NCBI GenBank assembly: GCA_013215295.1
Contig: JABSOZ010000015.1
Coordinates: 58,376 to 122,375 of the forward strand
Direction of reading: 5' to 3'
Length of the DNA: 64,000 bases
Origin: Colwellia sp.
GTDB taxonomy: Bacteria; Pseudomonadota; Gammaproteobacteria; Enterobacterales; Alteromonadaceae
Position numbers and translations under genes: made by a program. The notes beneath the pieces were generated by a model, which saw only the letters and a program-made list of their open reading frames with translations, made no database searches and was not told the origin of the DNA. Positions 9,596 through 49,603 of this stretch are shown one piece after another; positions within the stretch are counted from its first letter, which is position 1, and each line of letters begins with the position of its first letter.

Positions 9596-10050
9596 GACGA
9601 CATCTCCTTTGCAGCATCTAGGATGGCGGCTTTTACTCGACTGTAAGTGCCGCAGCGACATATGTTAGTCATCGCGGCATCGATATCGTCATTGCTTGGA
9701 TTTGGCGTGTTTTTCAATAATGCGGCAGCGGCCATCATCATTCCTGACTGACAATAACCACATTGAGGCACTTGATGTTTAAGCCACGCGGTTTGCAAGG
9801 CATGAGGCATCTCTTTTGACCCTAACGTTTCAACAGTATTAACTTGTTTACCCTGTGCAGCAATTGCAGGATACACACAAGAGCGTACGGCTTGTCCGTC
9901 AATGTGTACCGTACATGCACCGCATTGTGCTATGCCACAACCAAATTTAGTGCCACGAAGGCCAGCTTCTTCACGAATCAACCAGAGTAAAGGCATATCG
10001 CCTTCAACATCGAACGATTGTTCGCGGCCATTTAAAGTGATCGAAATCAT
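9592..10050 (-). CDS. [2Fe-2S]-binding small subunit (IorA-like) of the same oxidoreductase
   Basis: FGCGIAQCGACTVHIDG and CGYCQSG...NICRCGTY are the two 2Fe-2S cysteine clusters of this family. The 152-aa gene is translationally coupled to the large subunit. Confidence 0.88.
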   Translation of the reverse strand: MISITLNGREQSFDVEGDMPLLWLIREEAGLRGTKFGCGIAQCGACTVHIDGQAVRSCVYPAIAAQGKQVNTVETLGSKEMPHALQTAWLKHQVPQCGYCQSGMMMAAAALLKNTPNPSNDDIDAAMTNICRCGTYSRVKAAILDAAKEMSS

Positions 10051-28743: not shown

Positions 28744-30324
28744 ATGAGCCAAATTTCATCAAGTGCCATTATTGAATTAGCACTGAACTTAGCGGGTAGT
28801 TTAAATACTAAAGATAGATTTGACCGATTATTGGATACCGTGAGAAAAACCATTGTTTGTGATGCGGTTGCCTTGTTGTCATATCACGGAGAAATGCTTA
28901 AACCTATCGCTTTACAAGGGTTAAGCAGAGATACCTTAGGTAGGCGATTTCATGTAGCTGAGCATCCAAGATTTACAGCGTTATGTAAATCAAAATCACC
29001 TATTCGGTTTGCTGCTGATTCACCTTTACCTGATCCTTATGATGGCTTATTAATTGATCGTCCTGGAGATTTACCTGTTCATTCTTGCATGGGTTTACCG
29101 CTTTATTATGATGACAAATTATTAGGCTTGCTAACCATAGATAGTTTAACACCACATATTTTTGAAGACATTCCCGAACGTACTTTAGAAGTGATTTCAG
29201 CAATGGCTTCTGCAACACTTAATACCGCCTTTTTAATTGAACAATTAGAAAACCAGGCGGATCATTCTAAGCAGGTGGTTTCAGCGTTAACCGAAGAGGC
29301 ATGGAAACGTGATGGTGGCGAATTAATTGGCGAAAGTCAGATCATGCAAAAGCTCAAAGAAGAAATAGATATTGTTGCCCCTTCAGATTTTAACATCCTT
29401 ATCTATGGTGAAACAGGTGTGGGCAAGGAGTTAGTTGCTCGTACCCTTCATCAGAAATCTTTAAGAAAAAAAGGACCGTTGGTTTATGTTAACTGTGCAG
29501 CCTTGCCTGAAAACCTAATTGAAAGTGAGCTTTTTGGTCATGTTAAAGGGGCTTTTACAGGGGCAGATAAAAATCGAGCGGGTAAGTTTTCTTTGGCAAG
29601 CGGCGGTACCTTGTTCTTAGATGAAATAGGTGAGTTACCACTCTCGGCGCAAAGTAAAATATTGCGGGCAATACAAAGTAATGAAATTCAGCCTGTTGGC
29701 CAAGACAATGTCGAAGAGGTTGATGTTCGTATTGTTACTGCTACGAATAGAGATTTGAAAGAAGAAGTAAAAGCTGGCCGATTTCGAGCAGATTTATACC
29801 ATAGGTTAAGTGTATATCCTATCCGAGTGCCTGAATTACAAAAAAGAGTGGGTGATGTTCAATTATTGAGTGGTTATTTTGTTGAACATACAAGACAAAA
29901 GTTAGGCATACCTCAACTGAAGATAACCGCTGACGCTATTACTCATTTAGAGCAATACAGTTGGCCCGGAAATGTTCGCGAGCTAGAGCATGTGATCAGT
30001 CGAGCAGCATTAAAAGCAAGGGCACGGCAGATGGACAGAAAGATTATCTCTATCGAAAGCGCTGATTGTGGCTCTCTTAGCATGAGCAAAAACGAAAAAC
30101 TAACGGCCACAAATGTACCTGCTTTGATGAGCAGTGAATTTACTACCATTAACCTAAGAGAGGAAACCGATCGTTTTCAACGTCAGCTCATTAGACAAAC
30201 ATTAACGCAAGAAGATGGAAATTGGGCAGCAGCGGCGAGAAAATTATCTATGGACAGAGCAAACTTAAATCGCATCGCTAAGCGATTAAATATACAGGTG
30301 GTTAAATCAGTCATTGAAAATTAA
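28744..30324 (+). CDS. norR: Sigma-54-dependent NO-responsive transcriptional activator NorR (GAF + AAA+ + HTH)
   Basis: N-terminal GAF domain, Walker A GETGVGKE, sigma-54 contact loop GAFTGA and C-terminal Fis-type HTH (AAAARKLSMDRANLNRIAKRLNI). The gene is divergent from hmp. Confidence 0.88.
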   Translation: MSQISSSAIIELALNLAGSLNTKDRFDRLLDTVRKTIVCDAVALLSYHGEMLKPIALQGLSRDTLGRRFHVAEHPRFTALCKSKSPIRFAADSPLPDPYDGLLIDRPGDLPVHSCMGLPLYYDDKLLGLLTIDSLTPHIFEDIPERTLEVISAMASATLNTAFLIEQLENQADHSKQVVSALTEEAWKRDGGELIGESQIMQKLKEEIDIVAPSDFNILIYGETGVGKELVARTLHQKSLRKKGPLVYVNCAALPENLIESELFGHVKGAFTGADKNRAGKFSLASGGTLFLDEIGELPLSAQSKILRAIQSNEIQPVGQDNVEEVDVRIVTATNRDLKEEVKAGRFRADLYHRLSVYPIRVPELQKRVGDVQLLSGYFVEHTRQKLGIPQLKITADAITHLEQYSWPGNVRELEHVISRAALKARARQMDRKIISIESADCGSLSMSKNEKLTATNVPALMSSEFTTINLREETDRFQRQLIRQTLTQEDGNWAAAARKLSMDRANLNRIAKRLNIQVVKSVIEN

Positions 30325-30591
30325 CGTAAACTTGATACGTTAAAATGGCTGAAAGAGACACTTTAGACATTATCGATATTTAATGTGGATATATTGACAA
30401 GAATTCACATCAATTATGTCCATGATATTTAGAGTTTATGAAAGTATTTTTAAGGGCATGCTTGGTTGTAAAATATCTATTGTGTTACAATCAACGCATG
30501 CTGTTCAGTGTTGATTTAGTTTTTCATTTTTTACATTCAGATCACTCATTTGAATATAACTTTAACTAAATACAACTTCATTGTGTATACC

Positions 30592-31779
30592 ATGAACCAA
30601 AGTCAATCGATGCTCATATTATTGTGTAATGTAAATATTTATGCACCAACACCCTTAGGTATTAAAGATGTTCTTATTGCAGGTAATAAAATTGCTGCGA
30701 TATACGATCATGGTAAAGGGAAAGTAGCCATTCCTAAGCAATGGCCGGTTCAGGTTATTAATTTCGAAGGTGCTATTTTAACGCCGGGTTTTATTGATAG
30801 TCATGCCCACATTACGGGTGGTGGTGGTGAAGCTGGTTTTGCAACGCAAGTACCTCCTGTAGGGTTAACTGAATTTACTCATGCGGGTGTTACAACCGTT
30901 GTTGGATTACTGGGTACTGATGATACAACTCGCAGTACAGAAAACTTATTAAGCCGAGTTTATGGTTTACGTGAAGAAGGCCTATCCGCTTACTGTTGGA
31001 CGGGAGGTTATCACTTTCCTTTGACAACTATTACGGGTAGCGCAAAGTCAGATATTACTTTTCTGGAACCTGTTATAGGTATTGGCGAGTTTGCGATTAG
31101 TGATCATCGCTCTAGCCAACCAACGTTTGAAGAAGTTATTCGTTTAGCAAGTGAAGCTCATGTCGGAGGTCTACTTACCGGCAAAGCTGGTATTATTCAT
31201 TTTCACTTAGGTGATGGCGAACGACGTTTAGAACTCATTGAACGAGCCATAAAAGAAACTGAAATTCCTGCCAGAGTATTTAATCCTACTCACGTTAATC
31301 GCAACAAGCCTTTGTTTGAAGATAGCTGTAAATTATTAAGACAAGGTTGTCATATTGATTTAACCGCATTTCCTGCGGGCACAGCTCAACCGGGCTGGGA
31401 AGCCTGTGATGCAATTGAGATGGCAGTTGAAAGACAATTACCAATAGAAAAAATAACCCTCAGCTCAGATGGTGGAGGATGCTTGCCTTGTTTTGACCCA
31501 CAAGGTGAATTACAACATATGGATTTTGGTCGAGCGAGTACATTAGGAGAAACACTGGTAGCCACTTTAGATAAAGGGTTATCACTTGAAACTGTTCTGC
31601 CAATGTTAACAAGCAATGTTGCCAATATTTTACGCTTTAAAAACAAAGGGCAAATAGCCGTTGGTTTTGATGCTGATTTATTGGTAATGAATGAAAAATA
31701 TGAAATTACTGATGTCATGGCACAAGGTGTCTGGCACAAACAAAATAATCAAACAATGATTAAAGGTACATTTGAATAG
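30592..31779 (+). CDS. iadA: Isoaspartyl (beta-aspartyl) dipeptidase
   Basis: GFIDSHAHITGGGGEAGF and the amidohydrolase fold motifs match IadA. ATG at 30592 preferred over the TTG at 30550. Confidence 0.85.
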   Translation: MNQSQSMLILLCNVNIYAPTPLGIKDVLIAGNKIAAIYDHGKGKVAIPKQWPVQVINFEGAILTPGFIDSHAHITGGGGEAGFATQVPPVGLTEFTHAGVTTVVGLLGTDDTTRSTENLLSRVYGLREEGLSAYCWTGGYHFPLTTITGSAKSDITFLEPVIGIGEFAISDHRSSQPTFEEVIRLASEAHVGGLLTGKAGIIHFHLGDGERRLELIERAIKETEIPARVFNPTHVNRNKPLFEDSCKLLRQGCHIDLTAFPAGTAQPGWEACDAIEMAVERQLPIEKITLSSDGGGCLPCFDPQGELQHMDFGRASTLGETLVATLDKGLSLETVLPMLTSNVANILRFKNKGQIAVGFDADLLVMNEKYEITDVMAQGVWHKQNNQTMIKGTFE

Positions 31780-31787
31780 AGGTAAGT

Positions 31788-32612
31788 ATGTGTCCAGCAA
31801 AAACGACTGACGGTCAAAAAAGGGGATTTGTAATCCCAATTGGGGGGGCGGAAGAAAAAGTAAATGATCCAATAATTTTGCAACGTTTTGTTGAGCTATG
31901 TGGAGGAGATAATGCTTATATCGTTATCATCCCAACTGCGTCACAACTAGATGATACAGGTTCAAATTATGAAACTGTATTTCTTGAGTTAGGGGTGAAA
32001 ACAGCTATATCTTTACCAATAAATGATCGTGAACAAGCAAACAGTGAGGAATACCTTGCTGAATTAGACAATGCCACGGGAATTTTTATTACGGGTGGTA
32101 ATCAATTACGTTTGTCTACTATTCTAGGTGGAACACCTGTTGCTCAAAGCATTCGTAAACTTAATGCTGCAGGCGTACATGTTGCAGGCACATCTGCAGG
32201 AGCCGCGATTATGCCAGGGCATATGATTGCAGGCGGACGTACTGGCGCTTTACCCAATGAAGAAGGGGTAACATTTGCACCGGGTATGGGTTTAATTAAT
32301 AAGGTCATTATTGATCAGCATTTTAGTCAGCGTAATCGATTAGGACGTTTACTATCGGCCATATCATATAATCCTTTTGCCTCAGGTCTTGGCATTTGTG
32401 AAAATACAGCCGCTTTTATTGACCCTGACGGTGTTTTAGAAGTCGTTGGTCACGGTAGCATTACCGTGGTAGACCCTTCTGATTTAACCCATAGCTCAAT
32501 GGCTGATGCTAATAGAGGTGAAGCCATAACGTTACTCGGTCTAAAACTGCATGTGTTAGGCCCAGGTGCAACCTACTGTACTAACGAAAGAATAGCTAAA
32601 CCAGCAAGCTAA
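31788..32612 (+). CDS. Cyanophycinase (peptidase S51), no signal peptide, so intracellular type
   Basis: IPIGGAEEK, IIPTAS, ITGGNQLRL and GTSAGAA (catalytic Ser context). It starts 8 nt after iadA. Confidence 0.88.
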   Translation: MCPAKTTDGQKRGFVIPIGGAEEKVNDPIILQRFVELCGGDNAYIVIIPTASQLDDTGSNYETVFLELGVKTAISLPINDREQANSEEYLAELDNATGIFITGGNQLRLSTILGGTPVAQSIRKLNAAGVHVAGTSAGAAIMPGHMIAGGRTGALPNEEGVTFAPGMGLINKVIIDQHFSQRNRLGRLLSAISYNPFASGLGICENTAAFIDPDGVLEVVGHGSITVVDPSDLTHSSMADANRGEAITLLGLKLHVLGPGATYCTNERIAKPAS

Positions 32613-32638
32613 TTTTCTTCATTTAATTTACATCATTT

Positions 32639-32674
32639 AAAAGCCTGACAATTCATTAATGTCAGGCTTTTACA
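32639..32674 (+). terminator. Rho-independent terminator after cyanophycinase
   Basis: AAAGCCTGACA-N9-TGTCAGGCTTT followed by TAC ATTT. Confidence 0.6.
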
Positions 32675-32841
32675 TTTATATTTCATGGAGTTGTTTTCTT
32701 AATCTTCTATTAGACAATGTTTTTTCTCAAATTACTTGCTCTCTAATCAAACCATGTTATCTTTTCTATACGACATTTATTCCATTTATAGTCGCATTCA
32801 AATAACAAAAAATTCTCGTCAGAGTAATAAAGGAAATCACG

Positions 32842-35661
32842 ATGAAAATATTATCTTCCAACGTTTATGTTGGCCCAAATGTTTATGCTCATTTTCCAGT
32901 GATTCGCCATGTAGTAGATATAGGAATTTTGGAAAACTATCCATCAGTTAAACTCGGTGAAGAATTCATTCAAGGATTAATCACGAGTTTACCAAGTTTA
33001 GATCAACACGGCTGTTCTTACGGAGAGCCCGGTGGCTTTATTAGACGTTTAAAAGAAGACGATGGAACTTGGATTGCCCATATATGGGAACACGCAACCC
33101 TTGAACTACAATGTATCGCAGGCACAGAGGTCACTTTTGGTAAAACACGTGGCACAGGAGAAGTCGGCGAATATAATATGGTTTTCCAGTACAAGCAGCG
33201 TGACGTAGGTCTTGAAGCCGCAGCATTGGCTCGCAATTTATTAATTTCATTAATGCCTGGTAATATTCAAGCCGAACTAAACGTTAATATTGAAGACGAC
33301 TTTGACTTTCAACAGGAACTGGCTGACTTTATTCGTTTTGCCCAACGTAAAGAATTTGGTCCTAGTACACAATCGCTCGTTGATGCTGCAGAAGAACGTG
33401 ATATTCCATGGTTACGATTAAATGAATACAGCTTAGTTCAATTTGGTCATGGCAAATATCAACAACGAATTCAAGCAACTATTACCAGTGAAACCAAACA
33501 CATTGCGGTTGAGATTTCTTGTGACAAAGAAGATACACATAATTTACTAAATGATCTTGGATTACCGGTTCCTCTACAACGCATGGTGTACTCAGATTCG
33601 CAAGCTGTGAAAATGGCAAAGAGAATTGGTTACCCAGTCGTATTAAAACCTTTAGATGCTAATCATGGTCGCGGAGTCTCAATAGATTTAACTACCGAGG
33701 AGCAAGTCATCGCTGCTTTTGCCTTTGCACGTGAGCATGGCACCAGTAGAGCCGTTTTAGTGGAGTCTTTCTTAACGGGTCTAGATCACCGTATGTTGGT
33801 TGTAAATGGTGAGTTAGTTGCGGTAGCCAAACGTGTTCCCGGTCATGTGGTCGGAGATGGCATTAGTACAATCAGTAAATTGATTGACATAATTAATGAA
33901 GATCCTCGTCGAGGAGTGGGGCATGAAAAGGTATTGACTCGATTAGAGTTAGACACTCAAGCCCAACGATTATTAGAAGAAGCTAGTTTTACCAAAGAGA
34001 CCGTCTTACCCAAAGGTGAATTATTCTACTTGCGCTCAACAGCAAATTTATCAACTGGCGGTACTGCAATTGATATGACTGACGTGGTTCATCCTGACAA
34101 TAAAGCGATGGCTGAACGCGCAGTGAAATCGATTGGTTTAGATATTGGCGGCGTTGACTTTTTAACGGCGGATATTACACAATCTTATAAAGATATTGGC
34201 GGTGGTATTGTTGAAGTTAATGCCGCTCCAGGTTTTAGAATGCACGTGGCACCTAGTGAAGGTAAGCCGCGAGACGTTGCGGGTAAAGTAATGGATATGT
34301 TGTTCCCACCAACGTTACCTAAACGAATTCCTATTGCAGGTATTACGGGTACAAACGGTAAAACGACTACGTCTAGAATGTTATCTCATATATTAAAATG
34401 TGCGGGCCATGTTGTCGGAATGACATCGACGGATGGGGTTTATGTTGACGGCCAATTATCTGTTAAAGGTGATATGACCGGTCCTGTTTCATCACAAATC
34501 GTTTTACGCGATCCCTCTGTGGATATTGCTGTGTTAGAAACAGCACGAGGTGGTATTGCACGTTCTGGTCTTGGATATCGTGAATGTGATGTAGCCGCTT
34601 GTATTAATGTACAAGAAGATCACTTAGGGCAAAGAGGGATAAATACACTTGAGCAGCTTGCTGAAGTAAAAAGAATTGTCGTTGAAGTTGCTACAGACAG
34701 TGTTGTATTAAATGCAGATGATGCGCAGTGTTTAAAAATGGCTGATCATACTAAAGCTAAACATTTATGTTATGTCACGATGAATACTGGGCATAGTTTA
34801 GTGCGAGAACATATTCGAGCTGGTGGTCGTGCGGTTGTATTAGAGAAAGGTATTAATGGTGATATGATCACCATCTTTGATAATGGCACACATATTCCAT
34901 TATTATGGACGCATCTGATACCCGCCACCTTAGAAGGTAAAGCGCTACACAACGTACAAAATGCAATGTTTGCTGCTGCTTTAGCTTATTGTTTAGATAA
35001 ACCTCTAGAGGCAATACAACAAGGCTTAAGAACTTTTACTACGACCTTTTATCAAGCACCAGGAAGAATGAACGTGTTTGATGAACACGCTTTTAGAGTA
35101 ATACTCGATTACGCACACAATGCCGATGGTGTGCGTTGTATGAGCGAACTAGCCAGTAAATTAGACGTTAAAGGTAAACGTATTACCGTTTTAGCTGGCC
35201 CAGGTGATCGCCGTGATAAAGATATTGTAAATATTGCTAAAGCAGCCGCAGGGCATTTCGATATTTATATTTGTAAGGCTGATGATAATAGACGAGGACG
35301 GGAGTTTGATGAAGTACCTAAACTTTTAGTTGCCGCATTAAAAGAAGCCGGTGTTAAAGAGTCACAAATTTATGCTATTCCTGATGAAGTCGAAGCAATA
35401 AATAAAGGGCTTGAATTAGCCTCTACAGATGATTTATTGATGGTCTTTGGTGATGCTATAACACGCTGTTGGAAACAGATTATTAACTTCAATGGTGATA
35501 TTAGCGCTAAAAATGAAACAGAACAAACACCACTTCAGACGGTTGTTTCAATGTTAGAAACAACCGAACCTGATACGTTTGTTTTAGAAACCGGTATGAG
35601 AATTGTCTCTGATGATCGAGGAGTTCGTGTGGTCTCTGAGCATGATGAAGAAAGTGATTAA
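32842..35661 (+). CDS. cphA: Cyanophycin synthetase (N domain + ATP-grasp G domain + Mur-ligase-like M domain)
   Basis: 939 aa. ATP-grasp region (GYPVVLKPLDANHGRGV ... VEVNAAPG) followed by a Mur-ligase P-loop GITGTNGKTTT and DHLG. Confidence 0.92.
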   Translation: MKILSSNVYVGPNVYAHFPVIRHVVDIGILENYPSVKLGEEFIQGLITSLPSLDQHGCSYGEPGGFIRRLKEDDGTWIAHIWEHATLELQCIAGTEVTFGKTRGTGEVGEYNMVFQYKQRDVGLEAAALARNLLISLMPGNIQAELNVNIEDDFDFQQELADFIRFAQRKEFGPSTQSLVDAAEERDIPWLRLNEYSLVQFGHGKYQQRIQATITSETKHIAVEISCDKEDTHNLLNDLGLPVPLQRMVYSDSQAVKMAKRIGYPVVLKPLDANHGRGVSIDLTTEEQVIAAFAFAREHGTSRAVLVESFLTGLDHRMLVVNGELVAVAKRVPGHVVGDGISTISKLIDIINEDPRRGVGHEKVLTRLELDTQAQRLLEEASFTKETVLPKGELFYLRSTANLSTGGTAIDMTDVVHPDNKAMAERAVKSIGLDIGGVDFLTADITQSYKDIGGGIVEVNAAPGFRMHVAPSEGKPRDVAGKVMDMLFPPTLPKRIPIAGITGTNGKTTTSRMLSHILKCAGHVVGMTSTDGVYVDGQLSVKGDMTGPVSSQIVLRDPSVDIAVLETARGGIARSGLGYRECDVAACINVQEDHLGQRGINTLEQLAEVKRIVVEVATDSVVLNADDAQCLKMADHTKAKHLCYVTMNTGHSLVREHIRAGGRAVVLEKGINGDMITIFDNGTHIPLLWTHLIPATLEGKALHNVQNAMFAAALAYCLDKPLEAIQQGLRTFTTTFYQAPGRMNVFDEHAFRVILDYAHNADGVRCMSELASKLDVKGKRITVLAGPGDRRDKDIVNIAKAAAGHFDIYICKADDNRRGREFDEVPKLLVAALKEAGVKESQIYAIPDEVEAINKGLELASTDDLLMVFGDAITRCWKQIINFNGDISAKNETEQTPLQTVVSMLETTEPDTFVLETGMRIVSDDRGVRVVSEHDEESD

Positions 35662-35724
35662 ATTGTCATTCTTCAGGATCCAATAGGCGTCAAAAATTCG
35701 TACTTTGAAATGGTTTAGCAATAT

Positions 35725-37440
35725 ATGAACAAAGAAAAGATAAAACTGAGCTTAGATGATAATCGTCGGCTGACGGGTAAAAATTTATTATCAGATCAGC
35801 CTGGTGCCATCATTGATGCTTTTGTCTCTGGTATTGATAAACAAGTCGTTGTGAATGTCTGGTTAACATATGCCAGACAGTTTCTTGAAGCCGTTAATTG
35901 GTCTGATGAACAAACCTTTTTTCGAATTTTCGAAGACGGTATAACCATCGCAATCAGTGCTCCTTTGGATGCACTCTATGCAGCCTGCGACTTAAATGAA
36001 AGTGCATGGCAGCTTACCTGTGATGAACTCACGCAGACAAATAGTGAAGAATCAATTTCAGCGGCTATTGCTCGTTTAAAACAAACAATAGCTGCTGAAG
36101 TCGATCCAAAACTGCTTGAACTCATTCAGCTGTCAAAATCAAATGACATTGTCTATTTGGTTGATGATGATGAGTTTTCGTTGGGGTATGGTACTACAGC
36201 ACAAAGTTGGCCAATATCAGCATTACCTGATCCGTTAACGATAAACTGGCAGCAATATAAACCCATTCCACTTGCTTTTGTAACAGGCACAAATGGTAAG
36301 TCTACATGTGTACGAATCATGTCGAAAATTATCAAGCAAGCGGGACAATGTTGTGGTGTTACTTCCACAGATTTTATTCGAGTCGGCGATAATATTATTG
36401 ATTATGGTGATTATTCAGGTCCGGGAGGAGCAAGAATGTTATTGCGACACCCTGATACTGAAACTGCTATTTTAGAAGTCGCTAGAGGGGGGATTTTACG
36501 TAGAGGTTTACCCATTGATAACGTAGACGCAGCATTGATAACTAATATTGCAGAAGATCATTTAGGACAATATGGTATTAACACTGTTGCAGCACTTGCC
36601 CAAGCTAAAGCGGTTGTTGCTAAAGGACTGAGTAACAACAAAACTAGTGGTAAATTAGTACTCAATGCTGATGATGTTAATTTGGTTGCTTTAGCGCCTG
36701 AATTGCTCGTTACTAAATGTTGGTTTTCGTTACATGAAAATAACGAGATATTACAGCAACATAAAAAAAGTGGTGGTGCTGTTTGTTTTGTTAGAAAGCA
36801 ACATTTGGTTTATTCAGACAGTGATGAAGAATCAGTGATTATTGCCGTAAATGATATTCCCATGACGTTAAATGGCGCTGCATTGCACAATATTCAAAAT
36901 GCTCTCGGTGCTATTACTTTAGCTAAATGCCTAAACATCGATAATAAAGCAATCAAAATAGCACTATCAAATTTTGCCAGTAATATTGAGGATAATCCTG
37001 GAAGGGGTAATCAGTTTAACGTAAAAAATGCTGAAGTTATTATGGACTTCGCACACAATGTTCACAGTATGGCTGCTATGGCAGTGACTACCGCAAACAT
37101 GAAAGCGAAACGTAAATTCTTAATGTTAAGTCATGCTGGCGATCGAACCAATAATGAAATTATTGATATGACTAAAACTGCATTAAAAATGAAACCAGAT
37201 TTTATTGTTGCTGCAGAGTTGGTACCTTATCTACGAGGAAGGAAATTGGGAGAAGTACCTCAGTTAGTTGTTGATACGGCTCTCGCATTTGGCATGAAGA
37301 GAAGTGATATTTATGTTGCTGATAGTCCATATACCGGTGCTAAAAACATAGTAGACCAACTAGAAGAAAAAGATTTAGCGTTACTCATGGTTTTAGCTGA
37401 TCGAGAAGAAATTATCGAGCTTTTACTGGATAAAGCTTAA
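35725..37440 (+). CDS. CphA-related Mur-ligase-domain protein lacking the ATP-grasp domain (cphA'-like)
   Basis: 571 aa. FVTGTNGKSTCVRIM...LEVARGGILRRGL...NIAEDHLGQYGINT...DFAHN aligns by eye with the M domain of the upstream CphA. The roughly 180 N-terminal residues are unassigned, and no ATP-grasp motifs were found. Confidence 0.8.
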   Translation: MNKEKIKLSLDDNRRLTGKNLLSDQPGAIIDAFVSGIDKQVVVNVWLTYARQFLEAVNWSDEQTFFRIFEDGITIAISAPLDALYAACDLNESAWQLTCDELTQTNSEESISAAIARLKQTIAAEVDPKLLELIQLSKSNDIVYLVDDDEFSLGYGTTAQSWPISALPDPLTINWQQYKPIPLAFVTGTNGKSTCVRIMSKIIKQAGQCCGVTSTDFIRVGDNIIDYGDYSGPGGARMLLRHPDTETAILEVARGGILRRGLPIDNVDAALITNIAEDHLGQYGINTVAALAQAKAVVAKGLSNNKTSGKLVLNADDVNLVALAPELLVTKCWFSLHENNEILQQHKKSGGAVCFVRKQHLVYSDSDEESVIIAVNDIPMTLNGAALHNIQNALGAITLAKCLNIDNKAIKIALSNFASNIEDNPGRGNQFNVKNAEVIMDFAHNVHSMAAMAVTTANMKAKRKFLMLSHAGDRTNNEIIDMTKTALKMKPDFIVAAELVPYLRGRKLGEVPQLVVDTALAFGMKRSDIYVADSPYTGAKNIVDQLEEKDLALLMVLADREEIIELLLDKA

Positions 37441-37895
37441 ACGATTTAACTCGTTTAAGTGCATTAAAAAATAATTAGCAGGTTGTTATCGCCGAAATAA
37501 ACGAGCACAACTTCTAATACCCGTTGATTATATATCTGCTCATTTTTAATGGTTAAAACGAATAACTGCATCGTTATAAAATTAATAAGTAGAATGACTG
37601 TTTACTGAATTTTGTGCTTTGTATTTATCCGTTTTTACTCATGAAAAATGAGACCACATATATAATCAAATTAGTCTAATATTCCCCTCTTTATATCTAA
37701 ATCATCATTAATCAACTTTATTGTTAATCCAAATCATAATCACATTTTTTTGTAGTAATGTATAAAAAAGATATCTTTCAAAGGATATAAAACCAAATTT
37801 AATCGTTATGGCGTAAGGTTGACGTTAATGTGACGTGTCGCTGTCAAGCTATACTGGGTAAGCTATTGGGGAATTATCATTCTTTGGAATTATTT

Positions 37896-38603
37896 ATGAG
37901 TGTCTCAATAGAGAAAGTTAAAAAATTACGTAAACATAGTGGATGGTCACAAGAGAGGCTTGCTGAAATCAGTGGGCTTAGCCTGAGAACTATTCAAAGA
38001 ATTGAAACAAGTGGTAATGCTTCACTTGAATCTCAGTTAGCCATTGCAACGGCATTTAGTATTTCACCGGGTGAATTGTTAGACAATGAAAAAATTGAAA
38101 TAGGTAATGGAGGAATTAACTGGGGAGGAATTTTAGGCGTACTTTTATGTGTTTTCTTGATGATGTTTCAATTTGATTTAGGCAACACATCCTTCTTTGA
38201 TCTCTATAGCCTATTACTGGTGATCGGTCTTTCTGTTGCTATTTCATCTATTTCTATGGGGTTAAATAACACGTTAACCACGATATTACTTTTTCGTTGG
38301 GTGTTCTTCTTACCTAAAAATAAAGTGGGCATGCAAAAACACCTTCCAGATTTAAATAAATTAATCATCTATTGCCATGTATCCGGAGCGATATCGTCTT
38401 TAGTGGGGATTATTTCAGTACTAATGACACCGGATTTGTCTCAATATCACCTCCAAGCTCAGTATCCTTTAGCAGTGGGCTTAGGCGTAGCATTATTAAC
38501 ATCCTTGTATGCGGCCATGTTAGCAGAACTTATATTACGCCCTTTAAAACATCAAATTGAACGTTTGCTTATACAGCATCAAAAACGTTTAACTCACCAA
38601 TAA
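37896..38603 (+). CDS. XRE-family HTH fused to a four-TM MotA/PomA/ExbB-like membrane module
   Basis: HTH: KLRKHSGWSQERLAEISGLSLRTIQRIETSGNASLES. TM1-2 (GGILGVLLCVFLMMF...FFDLYSLLLVIGLSVAISS) and TM3-4 (SGAISSLVGIISVLM...GLGVALLTSLYAAMLAELILRPLKHQIERL) resemble the stator/ExbB channel core. ATG at 37896 preferred over the GTG at 37830. Confidence 0.6.
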   Translation: MSVSIEKVKKLRKHSGWSQERLAEISGLSLRTIQRIETSGNASLESQLAIATAFSISPGELLDNEKIEIGNGGINWGGILGVLLCVFLMMFQFDLGNTSFFDLYSLLLVIGLSVAISSISMGLNNTLTTILLFRWVFFLPKNKVGMQKHLPDLNKLIIYCHVSGAISSLVGIISVLMTPDLSQYHLQAQYPLAVGLGVALLTSLYAAMLAELILRPLKHQIERLLIQHQKRLTHQ

Positions 38604-38618
38604 CTGATAGGGATTATT

Positions 38619-40889
38619 ATGCTTACCTCTTACTTTTATCAAGTTAATCAAGTTTATAATACAAATAATTTATCCACGTTAACTCGATGTTTAGTGGTCC
38701 TTATTATTATGAGTTCTTTTAATCTTTCTGCGACAAATTTTCCATCTTTTATCTTTAAAAATAAAGCATCGACAGTAGATATTACTCGAGTAAATACACC
38801 ACCTTTAAGTGATGGTTCTTTACCTTCAGATGTTTGGATACAAATAAATGAAGTTGGAAGTTTGCATCAAATATTTCCTAACGAATATCAAGCAGCTGAA
38901 CTTAAAAGCGAAATAAAAATCGCTTACGATCAAGACAATCTTTATATCAAAGCTAAATTATTTGATAACGACATGGCAAATATTAGTCGAAATGTTATGT
39001 CAAAAGGTCAAGAAATATGGCAAGACGATTTGTTCGCTATTGTATTAGACCCGTTCAATGATAAAACAAATGGCTATTATTTCGCAAGCAATGCCAATGG
39101 TTTTAAAGAAGAAGGATTGATCGCTAATAATCGACATTATATGGGGAATTGGGATGGGATTTGGCAAGTAAAAAGTAAGGTCTTTAGCACTTACTGGACC
39201 GTCGAAATGTCTATTCCGTTTAAAACACTTTCTTTTGATAGCGCTAAAGAACAATGGGGGATTAATTTTTTAAGAGAGGTAAAACAACCCGAACAAATAT
39301 ATTATTGGGCTTCTCATGGAAATACCACATCACCTTGGGCACCAGAACATGCAGGACAAGTGTCACAAATCAATAACATAAGTCAGGGTGCCGGAATTGA
39401 CATTAAATTATCAACGAGTTTTTCCCAGCAACAATCTCCAGCAATAGAGACCTCAAACTCAGCAGAACCATCTCTTGATATTGTTTATAAACCAACACCC
39501 GCTATATCAACCTCCTTAACTTTTAATACCGATTTTTCTGCGACAGAAGTAGATCAGCAACAAGTAAATTTGACCCGATTTTCATTATTTACTCCTGAAA
39601 AACGTGACTTCTTTTTACAAGGAGCTGATATTTTTGAATTCGGTGATATAGGGACAAATGCACGACCATTTTTCTCTAGAAATATGGGGCTATCAGGATC
39701 AGGAGTACCACTGGATATTAATGTGGGGTCGAAAATTACCGGGCAAATAAATAATACTCGTTTTGGTGCCTTAGTCGTTAATCAAGATCTTAATACTTCA
39801 ACGCCGGTTACTCATTCAGAGAGTGATTCAGAAAGTGAAACGAATACATTAGCGGTTGCCCGAATCACTACACAACTAAGTGAAGAATACACAGTGGGAT
39901 TAATTTCGACCCATGGAAATCCTGACAATAATAATTTCAGCTCACTCGTGGGGATTGATTCACAATACCGAAATAAATCATTTCTTGATGGCGATGTCTT
40001 TGAAATTAAAGGTTGGTACCAACAAAGTATCAATGAAGAAGCTAATCAAGATATTCAAGGAGATGCTTTCAGTGTTGGCATTTATCTACCAAATGAACAT
40101 ATAAATGCAAAATTAGCGTATACCAACATAGATGCTTTATTTGATCCTGCGCTTGGCTTTATTAATAGAAATAATATTGAAAAAGTAGACGGTTGGATAA
40201 GCAATACCAGCCAATTAGAAGCTAAATGGATAGATAAATTATATCACAATGTATATTTTGATTACGTAAAAGAGCGAGGAGGGAGTGTGTCGTCTAAGTA
40301 TTATGCTTTTGATCTTTTGGATTTAACCACTACCACACAACAATACTTCAGGTTGACGTATCAATATACATTTGAGCATATAAAAGAAACGTTCAGTTTG
40401 GTTGATGAGTTACAGGTTCCAACGGGAAAGTACGACAACATTCAATGGCAATTATCGACTTCTTCAGACCGTTCAAAGTCTTTTTCTTATGGGTTGGAGT
40501 GGCATAAAGGCGATTATTTTCAAGGAGATATGGACTACAAAGCAATAGATGTAACGACAAATATTAATCGTTTTATCAAAGTCTCAGCTGAAGTTAATGA
40601 AAGAAAAATTTCCTTTGACCATCAAAATTTTACAGTGAAAACGGCATCATTGAAAGTTGACATTGCTTTTTCTCCTAAACTGTTTTGGAACAATTGGATT
40701 CAACACAACAATGTTTCTGACGAAATAAGCGTTTATTCAAGATTGGTTTGGCAACGAACACCGTTCAATATATTTAATGTTGTAATAAACCAAAATTATC
40801 TTAAGGGCAATGAGATAAATGAACGTCATAAATTTAACAAAGAATATCAAGATATCATCATAAAACTGAGCTACATGTGGCGATTTTAA
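38619..40889 (+). CDS. Exported CBM9-like + DUF5916 domain protein
   Basis: Signal-like N-terminus. ...EIKIAYDQDNLYIKAKLFD...QDDLFAIVLDPFNDKTNGYYFASNANG...WDGIWQVKS...WTVEMSIPFKTLSF is the CBM9-like pattern of this family. A long beta-rich C-terminus ends in ...YMWRF. It starts 15 nt after the upstream stop. Confidence 0.7.
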   Translation: MLTSYFYQVNQVYNTNNLSTLTRCLVVLIIMSSFNLSATNFPSFIFKNKASTVDITRVNTPPLSDGSLPSDVWIQINEVGSLHQIFPNEYQAAELKSEIKIAYDQDNLYIKAKLFDNDMANISRNVMSKGQEIWQDDLFAIVLDPFNDKTNGYYFASNANGFKEEGLIANNRHYMGNWDGIWQVKSKVFSTYWTVEMSIPFKTLSFDSAKEQWGINFLREVKQPEQIYYWASHGNTTSPWAPEHAGQVSQINNISQGAGIDIKLSTSFSQQQSPAIETSNSAEPSLDIVYKPTPAISTSLTFNTDFSATEVDQQQVNLTRFSLFTPEKRDFFLQGADIFEFGDIGTNARPFFSRNMGLSGSGVPLDINVGSKITGQINNTRFGALVVNQDLNTSTPVTHSESDSESETNTLAVARITTQLSEEYTVGLISTHGNPDNNNFSSLVGIDSQYRNKSFLDGDVFEIKGWYQQSINEEANQDIQGDAFSVGIYLPNEHINAKLAYTNIDALFDPALGFINRNNIEKVDGWISNTSQLEAKWIDKLYHNVYFDYVKERGGSVSSKYYAFDLLDLTTTTQQYFRLTYQYTFEHIKETFSLVDELQVPTGKYDNIQWQLSTSSDRSKSFSYGLEWHKGDYFQGDMDYKAIDVTTNINRFIKVSAEVNERKISFDHQNFTVKTASLKVDIAFSPKLFWNNWIQHNNVSDEISVYSRLVWQRTPFNIFNVVINQNYLKGNEINERHKFNKEYQDIIIKLSYMWRF

Positions 40890-41039
40890 CGTTATAAAAT
40901 AGTTTTGTTAAATGTCAGATCGTAAATACTGTCGACAAAAAACAGGTCTTTTTTATAATTAATAGAATTATTATCTATAATTGGCTTGTATTGTCGACAA
41001 TGTGTGTTTTAATAGTTTCTTTTATTACGAAGGAAATTT

Positions 41040-41732
41040 ATGAGCACTTATGATTTGTTTGGCAGTATAAATACGTTTTTTATATTTGTAAGTTTATATG
41101 GTGTTTTATCACAAGTTAGAAGAATTTGGCATCGGAAAGTAGAAAAGACAAAAGGCGGTGCTACCGAGTTACTCTCTATTAATCAATTTAATGTCAGTTA
41201 CTTAGCGTACCTTTCATTTTTTATTTATGGATACTCAATTGAACCTTTTAACCATTATATTGTATGGCCTCGGTTTATTGCTGCGGCTTTAGTTGGCATT
41301 ATTCTTTATGAAATCTGGTTAGATAGGCGAACTAAATCTTCTCTGTTTAGTTTGTCACTCGTTGTATTGTCTTTAGCCGTTGGTGTGATTGGCCTAATTT
41401 ATGGAGATACTTTTGTTGATGAAGGGAGGAATGTGTCGACAATAATCATTCTGGCAATATCATTACTCATCATACAAGGCTATTCTCATCAAATCAGACT
41501 CATTTTAAAGTCGGGAGCAACAGGCGCAATTGATTTGAAAATGAGTCAATTTATTTTTTTAATGGACATTTCTACTATCGCTTTTGCATTAGCGATGGGA
41601 ATTGATACCGGGTGGCCGTTAATGGTTCTTGCAATAACGAGTGGCATAACAAAAATAATAATTATGTATTTGTTTAAGTGGGTAAGAGTTAGTCCTGTTG
41701 CTTTGCAACGTAGGGGTGTTTTTTCAGGGTAA
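41040..41732 (+). CDS. Seven-TM membrane protein, PQ-loop/SWEET-like internal repeat (tentative)
   Basis: Two repeats each have a Q-containing loop after a TM helix (LSQVRRIWHRK...; GYSHQIRLILKSG...). 230 aa, highly hydrophobic. Confidence 0.5.
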   Translation: MSTYDLFGSINTFFIFVSLYGVLSQVRRIWHRKVEKTKGGATELLSINQFNVSYLAYLSFFIYGYSIEPFNHYIVWPRFIAAALVGIILYEIWLDRRTKSSLFSLSLVVLSLAVGVIGLIYGDTFVDEGRNVSTIIILAISLLIIQGYSHQIRLILKSGATGAIDLKMSQFIFLMDISTIAFALAMGIDTGWPLMVLAITSGITKIIIMYLFKWVRVSPVALQRRGVFSG

Positions 41733-42016
41733 CAATATTCATTACTTACAGTTATGAATCTTTTAATTATTGATACTTCCAAAGCCTTCGTATCTATAGT
41801 GTACAGGTTTTTATAATTCACCATTTCGAGCTTTAACCTAGAGTAGGTAATCGAAAGTAAATTTCATCAATAATAGCTATTAAATTGTGATTCTTTAGCC
41901 TATTGTCGTATAACTGTCGTAAGTTATGCGTAATAACACCGTAAGACTTTCGTAAACTATTCCAAGTAAATGATGGAGAATTCAATTGTCTCTAAACAAA
42001 CGAGTAAAAGGTATTT

Positions 42017-42442
42017 ATGAAAATTAATGCAGAATTGATCTTAGAATTAAGAAACAAAAAGTCGTGGTCTCAAGATGAGTTAGCCATTGCTTCGGGACTT
42101 AATCTTAGGACTATACAGCGAATTGAGAATGAGGCCTCTGCATCATTGCAGTCTAGAAAGGCTTTAGCATCAGCATTAGACATAGATACCTTAGATCTTG
42201 AATACAAGGAATTAAAGAAAATGAAACAATATGAATATAAAACGTTAGAAATTGAAAATAAAGAAGGTTTTCTTACCGGTATCAAAAAGCAAAAGCTGCC
42301 GGATTTGGCAAATATATTTAATCAAGAAGGTAAGGACGGTTGGCTTGTTGTACAGATACTTACGCCAGATTTAGCGCAGGGCGTTTGGTCTGCTAAAACA
42401 GGGAATATGGTTGCATTATTACAAAGAGAAATTTTACAGTAA
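42017..42442 (+). CDS. XRE-family HTH fused to a DUF4177-like domain
   Basis: LRNKKSWSQDELAIASGLNLRTIQRIENEASASLQS is paralogous to the HTH of 37896... The C-terminal YEYKTLEIENKEGFLTG...NQEGKDGWLVVQIL matches the DUF4177 pattern. Confidence 0.7.
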   Translation: MKINAELILELRNKKSWSQDELAIASGLNLRTIQRIENEASASLQSRKALASALDIDTLDLEYKELKKMKQYEYKTLEIENKEGFLTGIKKQKLPDLANIFNQEGKDGWLVVQILTPDLAQGVWSAKTGNMVALLQREILQ

Positions 42443-42503: not shown

Positions 42504-43457
42504 CTAATTTTTAATATGTAACATATCTTTAGTTGCATTGATTAACAGGTGTCTTGTTTCAGGTTCAATTGACGCATGGCCTGCTGAACTACTTAGCATT
42601 AATTGAGAGTTAGGCAATTGTTGATGCAATAGCCACGCATTTTCAAATGGACAGACAATGTCGTAACGGCCATGAACAATAACCGTTGGAATATGAGCTA
42701 TTTTCTCACAGTGGTTAATAATTTGATTTTCTGATAAAAAGCAGTTGTTTACCATGTAATGAAATGCATGCCGAGCTAAGGTCCAGCAGCTTTCATCTAA
42801 AGTACATTCTTCAAGGAATTTATCATTTGGTAATAAAGTACAACAGCTAATTTCCCATTTGCTCCAAGCCTTTGCCATTGTCATAGCTGATTTTTTATCA
42901 ATGCCCATCAATACATCGTAGATAGCTTTAGTTGTTATTTTTTCTTCTGTAAAGTCGGTAGTATCAAGAAATTCTTGCCAATGGTCTGCAAAAATTTTTG
43001 TGCTACCACCACCTGAATATGTCCAGTTAATATCTTGGTCTCGCGCTAAAAATATACCTCGTAATACTAAACTTTTAATAGTTTCAGGATGAGCTTGAGC
43101 ATAAATTAGAGAGAGTACCGAACCCCAAGAACCTCCAAATATGTGCCATTTATTTATTTTTAATACCTTGCGAATTTTTTCTAGATCTTCAACTAATAAA
43201 TTTGTTTCATTGTTAACTAAATGACCATGCGGTAAAGACCGACCACAACCTCTTTGGTCAAACAAAATAATATGATATTTTTCTGGATCGAAAAATCGAC
43301 GGTCGTGAATTGTGCAACCTAAACCGGGACCACCATGAAGAAATACAACAGGTTCGCCTTGTGGGTTTCCGCATTGCTCAACATAAAGGCTATGTTCATC
43401 AGATACTTCAAATAAAAAGTGATTGAATGGCTCAATTTTAGGGTAAAAATCATTCAT
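42504..43457 (-). CDS. pip: Prolyl aminopeptidase (proline iminopeptidase)
   Basis: VVFLHGGPGLG, nucleophile GGSWGS and the catalytic His context SSSAGHA. 317 aa. Confidence 0.88.
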   Translation of the reverse strand: MNDFYPKIEPFNHFLFEVSDEHSLYVEQCGNPQGEPVVFLHGGPGLGCTIHDRRFFDPEKYHIILFDQRGCGRSLPHGHLVNNETNLLVEDLEKIRKVLKINKWHIFGGSWGSVLSLIYAQAHPETIKSLVLRGIFLARDQDINWTYSGGGSTKIFADHWQEFLDTTDFTEEKITTKAIYDVLMGIDKKSAMTMAKAWSKWEISCCTLLPNDKFLEECTLDESCWTLARHAFHYMVNNCFLSENQIINHCEKIAHIPTVIVHGRYDIVCPFENAWLLHQQLPNSQLMLSSSAGHASIEPETRHLLINATKDMLHIKN

Positions 43458-48865: not shown

Positions 48866-49603
48866 ATGAATTTATTATTAATTTTAAGACGTCGATTACA
48901 AATTAAAAAAATACTGATAATACTTAGCTTATTCATCATGTTAAGTTTTACCAACTCTGCTAATGCAACTATTATCACCATTGGTGACGGGTGGGATGGT
49001 CCAGGGCTAAACAGTGCTAATGTTAATTATTATTTTGGTAATTTGACCACAGACAATGGCCTTTTATCAGCTGATATTAAGGGGGCGTTTTTGACCGGAT
49101 TTAATGCTTGGTCTAACGCGACAAATAACAACTTAATATTCACTGAAATTTTTTCAGTTGGTCAAAATAACTCGATAGATATTTTCTTTGGGCCGAGTGA
49201 TCATGGTGACGGTTTCCCTTTCGGCGGTGGGACCTTAGCGCATGCTTTTTACCCAGCACCTCCTAACCCTGAGAGTATCGCGGGCGATTTACATATGAAT
49301 GATGTGTTTTCTTGGGAGATTGGCAACGGTTTAGGTATAGCGGCTTATGATATTACCCGAGTTGCGGTGCATGAAATTGGCCATTCAATTGGTTTAGGCC
49401 ATAGCGACAATGGCGGTAAAATCATGTCACCAACAATAGGCTCTCAAGATATTTTCGCAGGGCTAACTGCAGAAGATATTACCGGTGTTTGTTCGCTTTA
49501 CCGTTGTGATAGTGTCCAAGTACCTGAGCCATCTGTTTTAGGGTTGATTTTATTAGGTCTTTTCGGAACTTTGGTTTCTACTCGTCGTAAAGCGCGTAAG
49601 TAA
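48866..49603 (+). CDS. Matrixin (M10) family zinc metalloprotease with C-terminal PEP-CTERM sorting signal
   Basis: Signal peptide present. Metzincin motif VAVHEIGHSIGLGHS with Met-turn IMSP. The C-terminus VPEPSVLGLILLGLFGTLVSTRRKARK gives a PEP motif, a TM helix and a basic tail. Confidence 0.82.
   Translation: MNLLLILRRRLQIKKILIILSLFIMLSFTNSANATIITIGDGWDGPGLNSANVNYYFGNLTTDNGLLSADIKGAFLTGFNAWSNATNNNLIFTEIFSVGQNNSIDIFFGPSDHGDGFPFGGGTLAHAFYPAPPNPESIAGDLHMNDVFSWEIGNGLGIAAYDITRVAVHEIGHSIGLGHSDNGGKIMSPTIGSQDIFAGLTAEDITGVCSLYRCDSVQVPEPSVLGLILLGLFGTLVSTRRKARK

Follow-up and report, generated by a model that had tools for sequence, protein, structure and literature searches.

What might the membrane core of a flagellar stator do in a protein that begins with a DNA-binding domain? 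The question is raised by a gene in a 64,000-nucleotide (nt) stretch of Colwellia sp. DNA (assembly GCA_013215295.1, contig JABSOZ010000015.1, positions 58,376 to 122,375; the whole stretch is called the window below, and all unassigned coordinates refer to it). The gene encodes a protein of 235 amino acids (aa) in which an N-terminal Cro/C1 (XRE) helix-turn-helix (HTH) is joined to four transmembrane (TM) helices homologous to those of MotA and PomA, and it is followed by a gene for a 756-aa CBM9/DUF5916 protein. To our knowledge, every described role of stator-family proteins (MotA, PomA, ExbB, TolQ, GldL, ZorA) is that of an A5B2 machine doing mechanical work. Here, a stator core that has neither the work-delivering cytoplasmic domain nor an adjacent B gene retains an acidic side chain at its ion site and is attached to a DNA-binding domain. 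On balance, we regard the 235-aa protein as probably a transmembrane one-component regulator, in which the partner-less, minimal MotA-type core (mini-MotA) serves as a sensor or oligomerisation module, and which would control its own operon together with envelope cargo.

An HTH joined to a stator-type membrane core

The features on which the analysis rests all lie on the forward (+) strand:

37809-37847, +, four direct repeats, the presumed operator of the HTH (from their conserved phasing)
37859-37864, +, TAAGCT, a -10-like hexamer 11 nt after repeat 4 (T, A and final T invariant in the orthologue alignment)
37886-37889, +, ribosome-binding site GGAA (GGAG in orthologues), conserved in the orthologue alignment
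37896-38603, stop codon included, +, HTH/mini-MotA gene, 235 aa (from the list of open reading frames and the homologue search)
37917-38078, +, XRE/Cro-C1 HTH, residues 8-61 (Pfam HTH_3, PF01381)
38109-38600, +, mini-MotA domain, residues 72-235 (family profile against the PDB, and secondary structure of the AlphaFold2 model)
38526-38543, +, TM4 signature E211-L-I-L-R215-P216 (conserved in HTH-fused members and aligned to PomA)
38619-40889, +, CBM9/DUF5916 gene, 756 aa (Pfam, AlphaFold2, Foldseek)

The open reading frame (ORF) of the regulator extends from a GTG at 37830 to 38603, but the ATG at 37896, which gives 235 aa, is the true start, because homologues start at the equivalent MSxS, the ribosome-binding site lies 6 nt 5' of this ATG, and the GTG falls within the conserved upstream repeats. 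The protein has 434 homologues, and nearly all of the 120 listed aligned across most of the query; the named ones among the matches listed belong to marine Gammaproteobacteria (Thalassotalea, Colwellia, Pseudoalteromonas, Aliikangiella, Aliiglaciecola).

An earlier note on this DNA, made from the sequence alone, had recognised an N-terminal Cro/C1 HTH, and this was confirmed both by HTH_3, which matches residues 8-61 above its curated cut-off (E 1e-9; 38.7 bits vs. 23), and by a Foldseek search with the AlphaFold2 model, in which the five-helix HTH fold resembles the repressor-type proteins C.AhdI, SinR and P22 c2 (target-normalised template-modelling score about 0.8). The HTH belongs to a subtype with the signature GWSQE (residues 16-20) and RTIQRIE (residues 31-37). 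The single-chain model (mean predicted local distance difference test score, pLDDT, 85.7) comprises the HTH and four long helices with a short link between TM2 and TM3: TM1 spans residues ~76-94, TM2 ~103-121 with an interface helix at 123-136, a cytoplasmic loop 137-145, TM3 146-177, and TM4 191-216 with a cytoplasmic extension.

The same note had compared the four helices with the ion-conducting core of stator, ExbB and TolQ proteins and proposed a comparison with PF01618 (MotA_ExbB). With the single sequence this comparison failed (E 0.037; 14.2 bits vs. a cut-off of 22.9), and the NCBIfam MotP/PomA model was likewise sub-threshold (E ~5e-4). Because the single-sequence signals fell below threshold, a family profile was required; it was built from 26 membrane domains (residues 72-235) and searched against all PDB chains. 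The profile matched PomA (8brd; E 3.8e-13) and the MotA chains of further species (E between 1e-9 and 1e-6), and two HTH-less relatives of the module exceeded the PF01618 cut-off (P0160, 35.6 bits; P0178, 53.6 bits). All PDB matches were flagellar stator A subunits; not a single ExbB or TolQ chain was found among them, even at E up to 10. Foldseek ranked MotA/PomA chains first and XRE repressors next. The likeness to a stator core was thus upheld, and in the light of these matches we consider the TM1-4 core a genuine MotA/PomA homologue.

The profile alignment consists of two colinear blocks, TM1-TM2 with the following helix (PomA 3-75) and TM3-TM4 (PomA 153-206). It jumps from PomA 75 to 153 and thus skips all 77 residues (PomA 76-152) of the cytoplasmic domain that contacts the rotor, the absence of which the note had already stated; in the model, the helix after TM2 and TM3 are joined by a loop of ~10 residues. 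The ALLTTLYG....P motif of PomA/MotP-type stators, to which TM3-4 had been likened, recurs as ALLT[ST]LY...P. Every Lys and Arg lies on the predicted cytoplasmic side, which by the positive-inside rule indicates the N-in/C-in topology of MotA with the HTH inside the cell, and the periplasmic loops of the model are short (~8 and ~14 residues). No second mini-MotA was found in the 64-kb window. On a metagenome contig near-identical to the window (Ga0209292_1002599; loci L087 and L118), an HTH/mini-MotA paralogue of 38% identity lies ~12 kb from the first, and the window lacks it at the corresponding place.

The most conserved part of the core is the signature in TM4: among the HTH-fused members, Glu211 is kept in 138/138, Arg215 and Pro216 each in 137/138, and Tyr205, upstream of the signature, in 134/138. 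In the profile alignment, E211 corresponds to PomA N194 and P216 to PomA P199. PomA N194 is close to the essential PomB D24, and N194D suppresses PomB D24N (PMC11725901). The 235-aa protein would thus carry, built into an A-type subunit, a carboxylate at a place to which the B carboxylate can functionally relocate, suggesting that the A subunit supplies its own carboxylate. PomA T158, T185 and T186 correspond to S168, T202 and S203. The TM4 proline (MotA P222, PomA P199) is present; the TM3 proline (MotA P173, PomA P151) falls outside the aligned region, and the window protein has no Pro before TM3.

The signature extends to proteins without an HTH. An exhaustive profile search with an E-value limit of 1e-3 recovered 1,321 cluster representatives, of which 217 remain at a limit of 1e-10. 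The full set includes stand-alone mini-MotA proteins of ~150 aa, some of which are contig-end artefacts; P0160 in locus L166 is genuine. In the HTH-less short forms, the Glu is kept in 91/96, the Arg in 89/96 and the Pro in 95/96. Adjacent, overlapping paralogues occur in L166 (1276-1752 and 1749-2348), a tandem (duplicated) chain followed by another copy in L174 (437-1746), and internally duplicated chains reach 330-400 aa, several with an extra C-terminal TM helix; HTH-less paralogues and duplications include the proteins P0129, P0178, P0236 and P0262. Such arrangements hint at hetero-oligomeric rings made from several paralogues. The gene contexts of the stand-alone forms come mostly from short contigs with little neighbour information. 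A paper on MotAB diversity makes no mention of HTH fusions or of a partner-less minimal form, and the stand-alone and tandem proteins appear to be uncharacterised.

Does the core have a B-type partner? The note had seen no MotB-, ExbD- or TolR-like gene nearby, and none was found when the window ORFs within ~10 kb, all but ORF 42504-43457, were scanned with Pfam. The related loci agree as well: with an alignment of eight closer sequences as query, 10 genome loci and ~40 metagenome loci were surveyed, and in more than 40 of them no B-like neighbour is conserved, nor does any neighbour family recur family-wide. A and B genes are usually adjacent (PMC12505986). The N-terminus of the DUF5916 protein was considered as a B-like TM axle and rejected; it is a cleavable AxA signal peptide as in the rest of that family and has no conserved acidic residue.

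A B-type subunit (PomB/MotB, TolR or ExbD) might still act in trans, or the protein might co-assemble into the PomA/MotA rings of the cell and report stator assembly or ion flux, e.g., on surface contact, to transcription. The restriction of the PDB matches to flagellar MotA/PomA would fit such a role, as would the marine Gammaproteobacteria among the named carriers and the fact that, in MotA-type rings, the central cavity is normally filled by B helices (PMC9389320). Nevertheless, we think it improbable, since a conserved B-like neighbour is lacking at so many loci of a type in which A and B genes typically adjoin, and since, with an acidic residue where PomA has N194, the A-type subunit would seem to bring its own carboxylate.

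Phased repeats and the proposed regulatory mechanism

What the HTH may bind is indicated by four direct repeats upstream of the gene, TGGCGT at 37809, TGACGT at 37820, TGACGT at 37831 and TGTCAA at 37842, at a spacing of exactly 11 bp. The three-repeat pattern occurs at this site only in the window (chance expectation 0.05). The repeats are kept in all 12 aligned orthologous upstream regions, the flanks of which have diverged, and they are found upstream of family members at 35-99% identity. At least three phased repeats precede 47 of 55 family ORFs, and in 24 of 26 distinct sites they keep a constant 85-91 nt from the Trp17 codon. No sigma-70 -35-like hexamer could be placed 17 nt from the -10-like TAAGCT, and the repeats occupy that position. 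TAAGCT may be the -10 element of an activator-dependent promoter with the repeats as activator sites, and activation would be more plausible than repression.

The repeats are not peculiar to the mini-MotA fusion. They precede genes with the GWSQE...RTIQRIE subtype of HTH whatever the C-terminal module, at least three being present in 77 and at least four in 54 of 102 cases, vs. 1.7% of random 300-nt control windows with at least three; the other modules are 2TM (PF13239), DUF4177, glyoxalase and other TM bundles. HTH_3 proteins of this subtype occur in Kangiella, Vibrio, Acinetobacter, Psychrobacter, Bosea and others (L011-L042), with 4-5 TGnCG repeats at 11-bp spacing ~100 nt upstream. The window itself contains a further example, a 141-aa HTH_3 + DUF4177 regulator (42017-42442; HTH subtype SWSQDELA...RTIQRIE), ~80-115 nt upstream of which four CGTA cores stand in exact 11-bp phase at 41905-41940 (TGTCGTA, TGTCGTA, ATGCGTA, CACCGTA). 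The 11-bp-phased repeats thus look like a class-wide operator architecture, of which no description was found in the literature searched, and there is strong comparative evidence for the HTH as a working autoregulatory domain that reads phased direct repeats. The TGnCG operator would provide a testable cis-element for many uncharacterised small XRE regulators (2TM, DUF4177, glyoxalase and mini-MotA types).

Taken together, these observations suggest the following mechanism. The cytoplasmic N-terminal HTH, tethered ~13 residues from the membrane, would bind the four TGnCG repeats at the -35 place of its own promoter and thereby control a two-gene operon consisting of the regulator gene and a gene for envelope cargo, here the CBM9/DUF5916 barrel. 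The membrane part would be a four-helix core derived from MotA/PomA that has lost the rotor-contacting domain and works without a B subunit. By homology it may form a ring of about five subunits, gathering several HTHs so that they fill the repeats on one face of the DNA. Through E211-x3-R215-P216, placed where stators bind ions, the core is likely to bind or conduct H+ or Na+, or otherwise to sense membrane energisation, and this state might be relayed through TM1 to the HTH. Of the two roles proposed by the earlier note, coupling of ion flux or envelope state to transcription is, we infer, the best reading. In its boldest form, a partner-less MotA-type ring with its own carboxylate would shift the HTH cluster on the four repeats and so make transcription respond directly to the ion-motive force, or to bound Na+/H+, as part of a wider branch of B-less mini-MotA proteins; we put this forward tentatively and regard it as doubtful. 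If true, gene regulation could read membrane energisation directly, and a core still able to bind or conduct ions would be a minimal system for ion handling by the MotA hairpin without MotB.

Several points weigh against the proposed regulator. A pentamer has five subunits, whereas there are four repeats, and the same 4-5 repeats accompany soluble partners of the HTH (DUF4177, glyoxalase), so that the HTH class, rather than a MotA-like ring, determines how many repeats there are. As a rule, XRE HTHs act as dimers on palindromes, and in the known 5:2 motors the A ring needs a central B dimer. The polar Ser/Thr residues of the Na+ path are retained in only about one third to one half of the family. 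The MotA-like core might be only an anchor, i.e., a membrane anchor or oligomerisation scaffold taken from a stator gene, the signal being sensed elsewhere or there being none beyond localisation. The incomplete conservation of the Na+ path would fit an anchor, and a plug-in design is suggested by the use of the same HTH subtype and operator with 2TM, DUF4177, glyoxalase and other TM bundles. However, a mere anchor would not keep a buried Glu, Arg and Pro in at least 137 of 138 fusions and in 89-95 of 96 HTH-less mini-MotAs, and charged residues within a TM helix are costly unless functional. We therefore consider the anchor possible, yet unlikely, and retain the sensor or oligomerisation module as the preferred role of the core.

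The envelope gene downstream and the surrounding loci

The 756-aa gene was correctly placed by the earlier note 15 nt downstream: the regulator ORF stops at 38603, its neighbour starts at 38619, and no terminator-like site was seen between the two positions. The product combines a signal peptide (~1-38, ...NLSA|TNF), a CBM9-like beta-sandwich (~65-217) and an outer-membrane beta-barrel (~259-756) that ends in the beta-signal ...SYMWRF. Both Pfam domains were found above their cut-offs (CBM9_1, E 8e-13, 49.1 vs. 23.4 bits; DUF5916, E 1e-8, 34.9 vs. 22.6 bits), and together with the signal peptide and the barrel with its terminal aromatic residue they place the protein in the CBM9_1 + DUF5916 class of outer-membrane proteins. 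The AlphaFold2 model (pLDDT 76.9) has the CBM9 sandwich and a barrel of about two dozen strands, and Foldseek relates it to the CBM9 module 7nwn, LptD, TonB-dependent transporters and ushers. The DUF5916 family has more than 3,352 matches; in a sample of 30 sequences, nearly all have an AxA-type signal peptide and all have an outer-membrane beta-signal end (...SYTFRF), with a conserved terminal F/Y. Signal peptide and barrel indicate that the product is an exported outer-membrane protein and not an analogue of a B subunit. The literature searched yielded no description of DUF5916, the 2TM domain or DUF4177; outer-membrane proteins with DUF5916, as yet uncharacterised, gain a regulatory context here.

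Whether the two genes form a fixed pair depends on how closely the regulators are related. Where the regulator is at least ~64% identical, the pair is adjacent and co-directional in ~25 loci, with DUF5916 orthologues of 52-96% identity, and the flanks of the window, L081 and L084 (Thalassotalea hakodatensis) have no gene in common. Within the same range of identity the pair is missing from two loci, Aliikangiella marina L001 (66%) and L082/83 (72%). Regulators of less than 60% identity are followed by other genes: a lipoprotein esterase (L003, L004), a signal-peptide beta-lactamase-family hydrolase (L007, L010), cytochrome b561 (L008, L009) or a TM-anchored TerB (L002). The coupling to DUF5916 that the note had proposed to survey is thus conserved within one subclade, with two exceptions, and absent from all more distant members. 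In nine of 11 distinct contexts the downstream gene is co-directional and at most 150 nt away, and it always encodes an envelope protein. The changing downstream genes point to the relation of a regulator to variable envelope cargo rather than of a motor to a fixed partner.

This bears on the second role suggested by the note, in which the protein would energise its exported partner, the mini-MotA turning ion-motive force into work on the DUF5916 outer-membrane protein in the manner of a Ton/Tol-like system. The gap of 15 nt, the movement of the pair together into different contexts in one subclade and the likeness of the barrel to TonB-dependent transporters and LptD would be in line with such a function. 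Yet periplasmic loops of ~8 and ~14 residues leave nothing that spans the periplasm, Pfam scans of the ORFs within ~10 kb found no TonB, TolA or ExbD partner that could provide a link, the barrel is an ordinary Sec-exported one, most of the family and two loci in the paired range lack the pairing, a DUF5916 relative is preceded by a PadR regulator and an unrelated membrane protein, and the HTH would be left without a role. The suggestion was not borne out, and we consider an energiser very unlikely. The relative in question, 42% identical and also with DUF5916/CBM9, lies in L168 (2782-6166), preceded by the PadR regulator, the 250-aa membrane protein and an ORF of 36 aa; for an outer-membrane protein of this type, this is another regulatory arrangement with a link to the membrane. 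The 250-aa membrane protein was considered as MotA-like in its turn and rejected on testing.

The gene neighbourhoods also bear on whether the protein could be a DNA-gated or stress-triggered ion leak, i.e., an effector that depolarises the membrane, of the sort known from some defence systems, under the control of the HTH. Its HTH is similar to restriction-modification control proteins and CapH, and the pair in Thalassotalea hakodatensis adjoins resolvase and integrase remnants. Against this, the PADLOC models that match are HTH ones alone (control protein, CapH) and ZorA gave no match, the contexts are mostly housekeeping and envelope genes, and a conserved operator for autoregulation is in keeping with an ordinary regulator, so that an effector of this kind seems hardly credible. 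Among the alternatives to the transmembrane regulator, we rank the anchor first, a B subunit in trans or co-assembly second, the Ton-like energiser third and the depolarising effector last.

Further features of the window surround the operon. Upstream (28744-37440) lies a cyanophycin cluster with a GAF/sigma-54 activator, an amidohydrolase (likely isoaspartyl dipeptidase), a cyanophycinase (Peptidase_S51) and two ligases, a 939-aa cyanophycin synthetase and a 571-aa CphA-like ligase without the N-terminal ATP-grasp part. Downstream, a strong promoter-like site (TCGACA-16-TATAAT, 40932-40959) is followed by a gene for a 230-aa multi-pass membrane protein without Pfam or NCBIfam match (41040-41732), which is 94% conserved beside the pair in L087. 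In the Pfam scans, the downstream ORFs within ~10 kb comprise an unassigned membrane protein, the HTH-DUF4177 regulator, a response regulator, a solute-binding protein, a glutathione S-transferase and a metalloprotease; the last (48866-49603) is of the matrixin type (Peptidase_M10) and has a C-terminal PEP-CTERM sorting signal. Positions 8001-10000 have a GC content of 0.47 vs. ~0.35 elsewhere in the window and might be an rRNA/tRNA or foreign segment.

Comparison with known systems

With PomA and MotA, the 235-aa protein shares a four-TM core that is homologous helix for helix, including LLT[ST]LY...P, the TM4 proline and the N-in/C-in topology. It differs in lacking the FliG-contacting cytoplasmic domain (PomA 76-152), the C-terminal tail and an adjacent B gene, and in having Glu for N194, an Arg before the proline and the N-terminal HTH. 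Flagellar stator A subunits have a torque-generating domain between TM2 and TM3 and an adjacent gene for a B subunit (a single TM helix with an essential Asp plus an OmpA-like domain), and neither was found here. The lost cytoplasmic domain, the absence of an adjacent B subunit, the Glu/Arg changes and the fused HTH together mean that the protein cannot drive a flagellar rotor. ExbB/TolQ and ZorA belong to the same superfamily (PF01618) and exemplify non-flagellar use of the core, but ExbB/TolQ gave no profile match and ZorA no PADLOC match; these systems have an adjacent B subunit and larger cytoplasmic domains (PMC12505986).

The layout of the protein, an HTH and four TM helices in one chain with the HTH placed in the cytoplasm, is that of a transmembrane one-component regulator. 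Like ToxR, CadC and Enterococcus BcrR, it has a cytoplasmic N-terminal DNA-binding domain joined straight to TM helices, and the regulator stands beside its target gene; BcrR resembles it in layout, with an XRE HTH and four TM helices. ToxR-type regulators read direct repeats near the promoter. In the accessible portions of a survey of transmembrane regulators (PMC10269533), HTH-type members are the commonest class, HTH_3+2TM proteins are catalogued as transmembrane transcription regulators in its supplement, and the term 'MotA' does not occur in those portions of main text and supplement. What sets the 235-aa protein apart from these transcription regulators is that its membrane module is a MotA/PomA homologue with an ion-site-like E-x3-R-P.

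Its closest relatives on the DNA-binding side are HTH_3 + 2TM (PF13239) proteins and the HTH_3 + DUF4177 regulator of the window, which have the same HTH subtype and 4-5 TGnCG/CGTA repeats in 11-bp phase ~90-110 nt upstream; they differ in a two-helix hairpin or a soluble domain where the 235-aa protein has the mini-MotA. On the membrane side, the stand-alone and tandem mini-MotA proteins share the four-TM module without cytoplasmic domain and the E-x3-R-P, and differ in having no HTH. Neither the HTH/MotA-type fusion nor a partner-less mini-MotA branch with a built-in carboxylate was found in the literature searched, which is in agreement with the view of the earlier note that the architecture is undescribed; the automatic annotation of the Joint Genome Institute (JGI) does name the combination for some homologues ('XRE regulator/flagellar motor component MotA'). 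Membrane-bound regulators are well known, as are MotA-family proteins, and it is their fusion that, by the same literature, constitutes the novel element.

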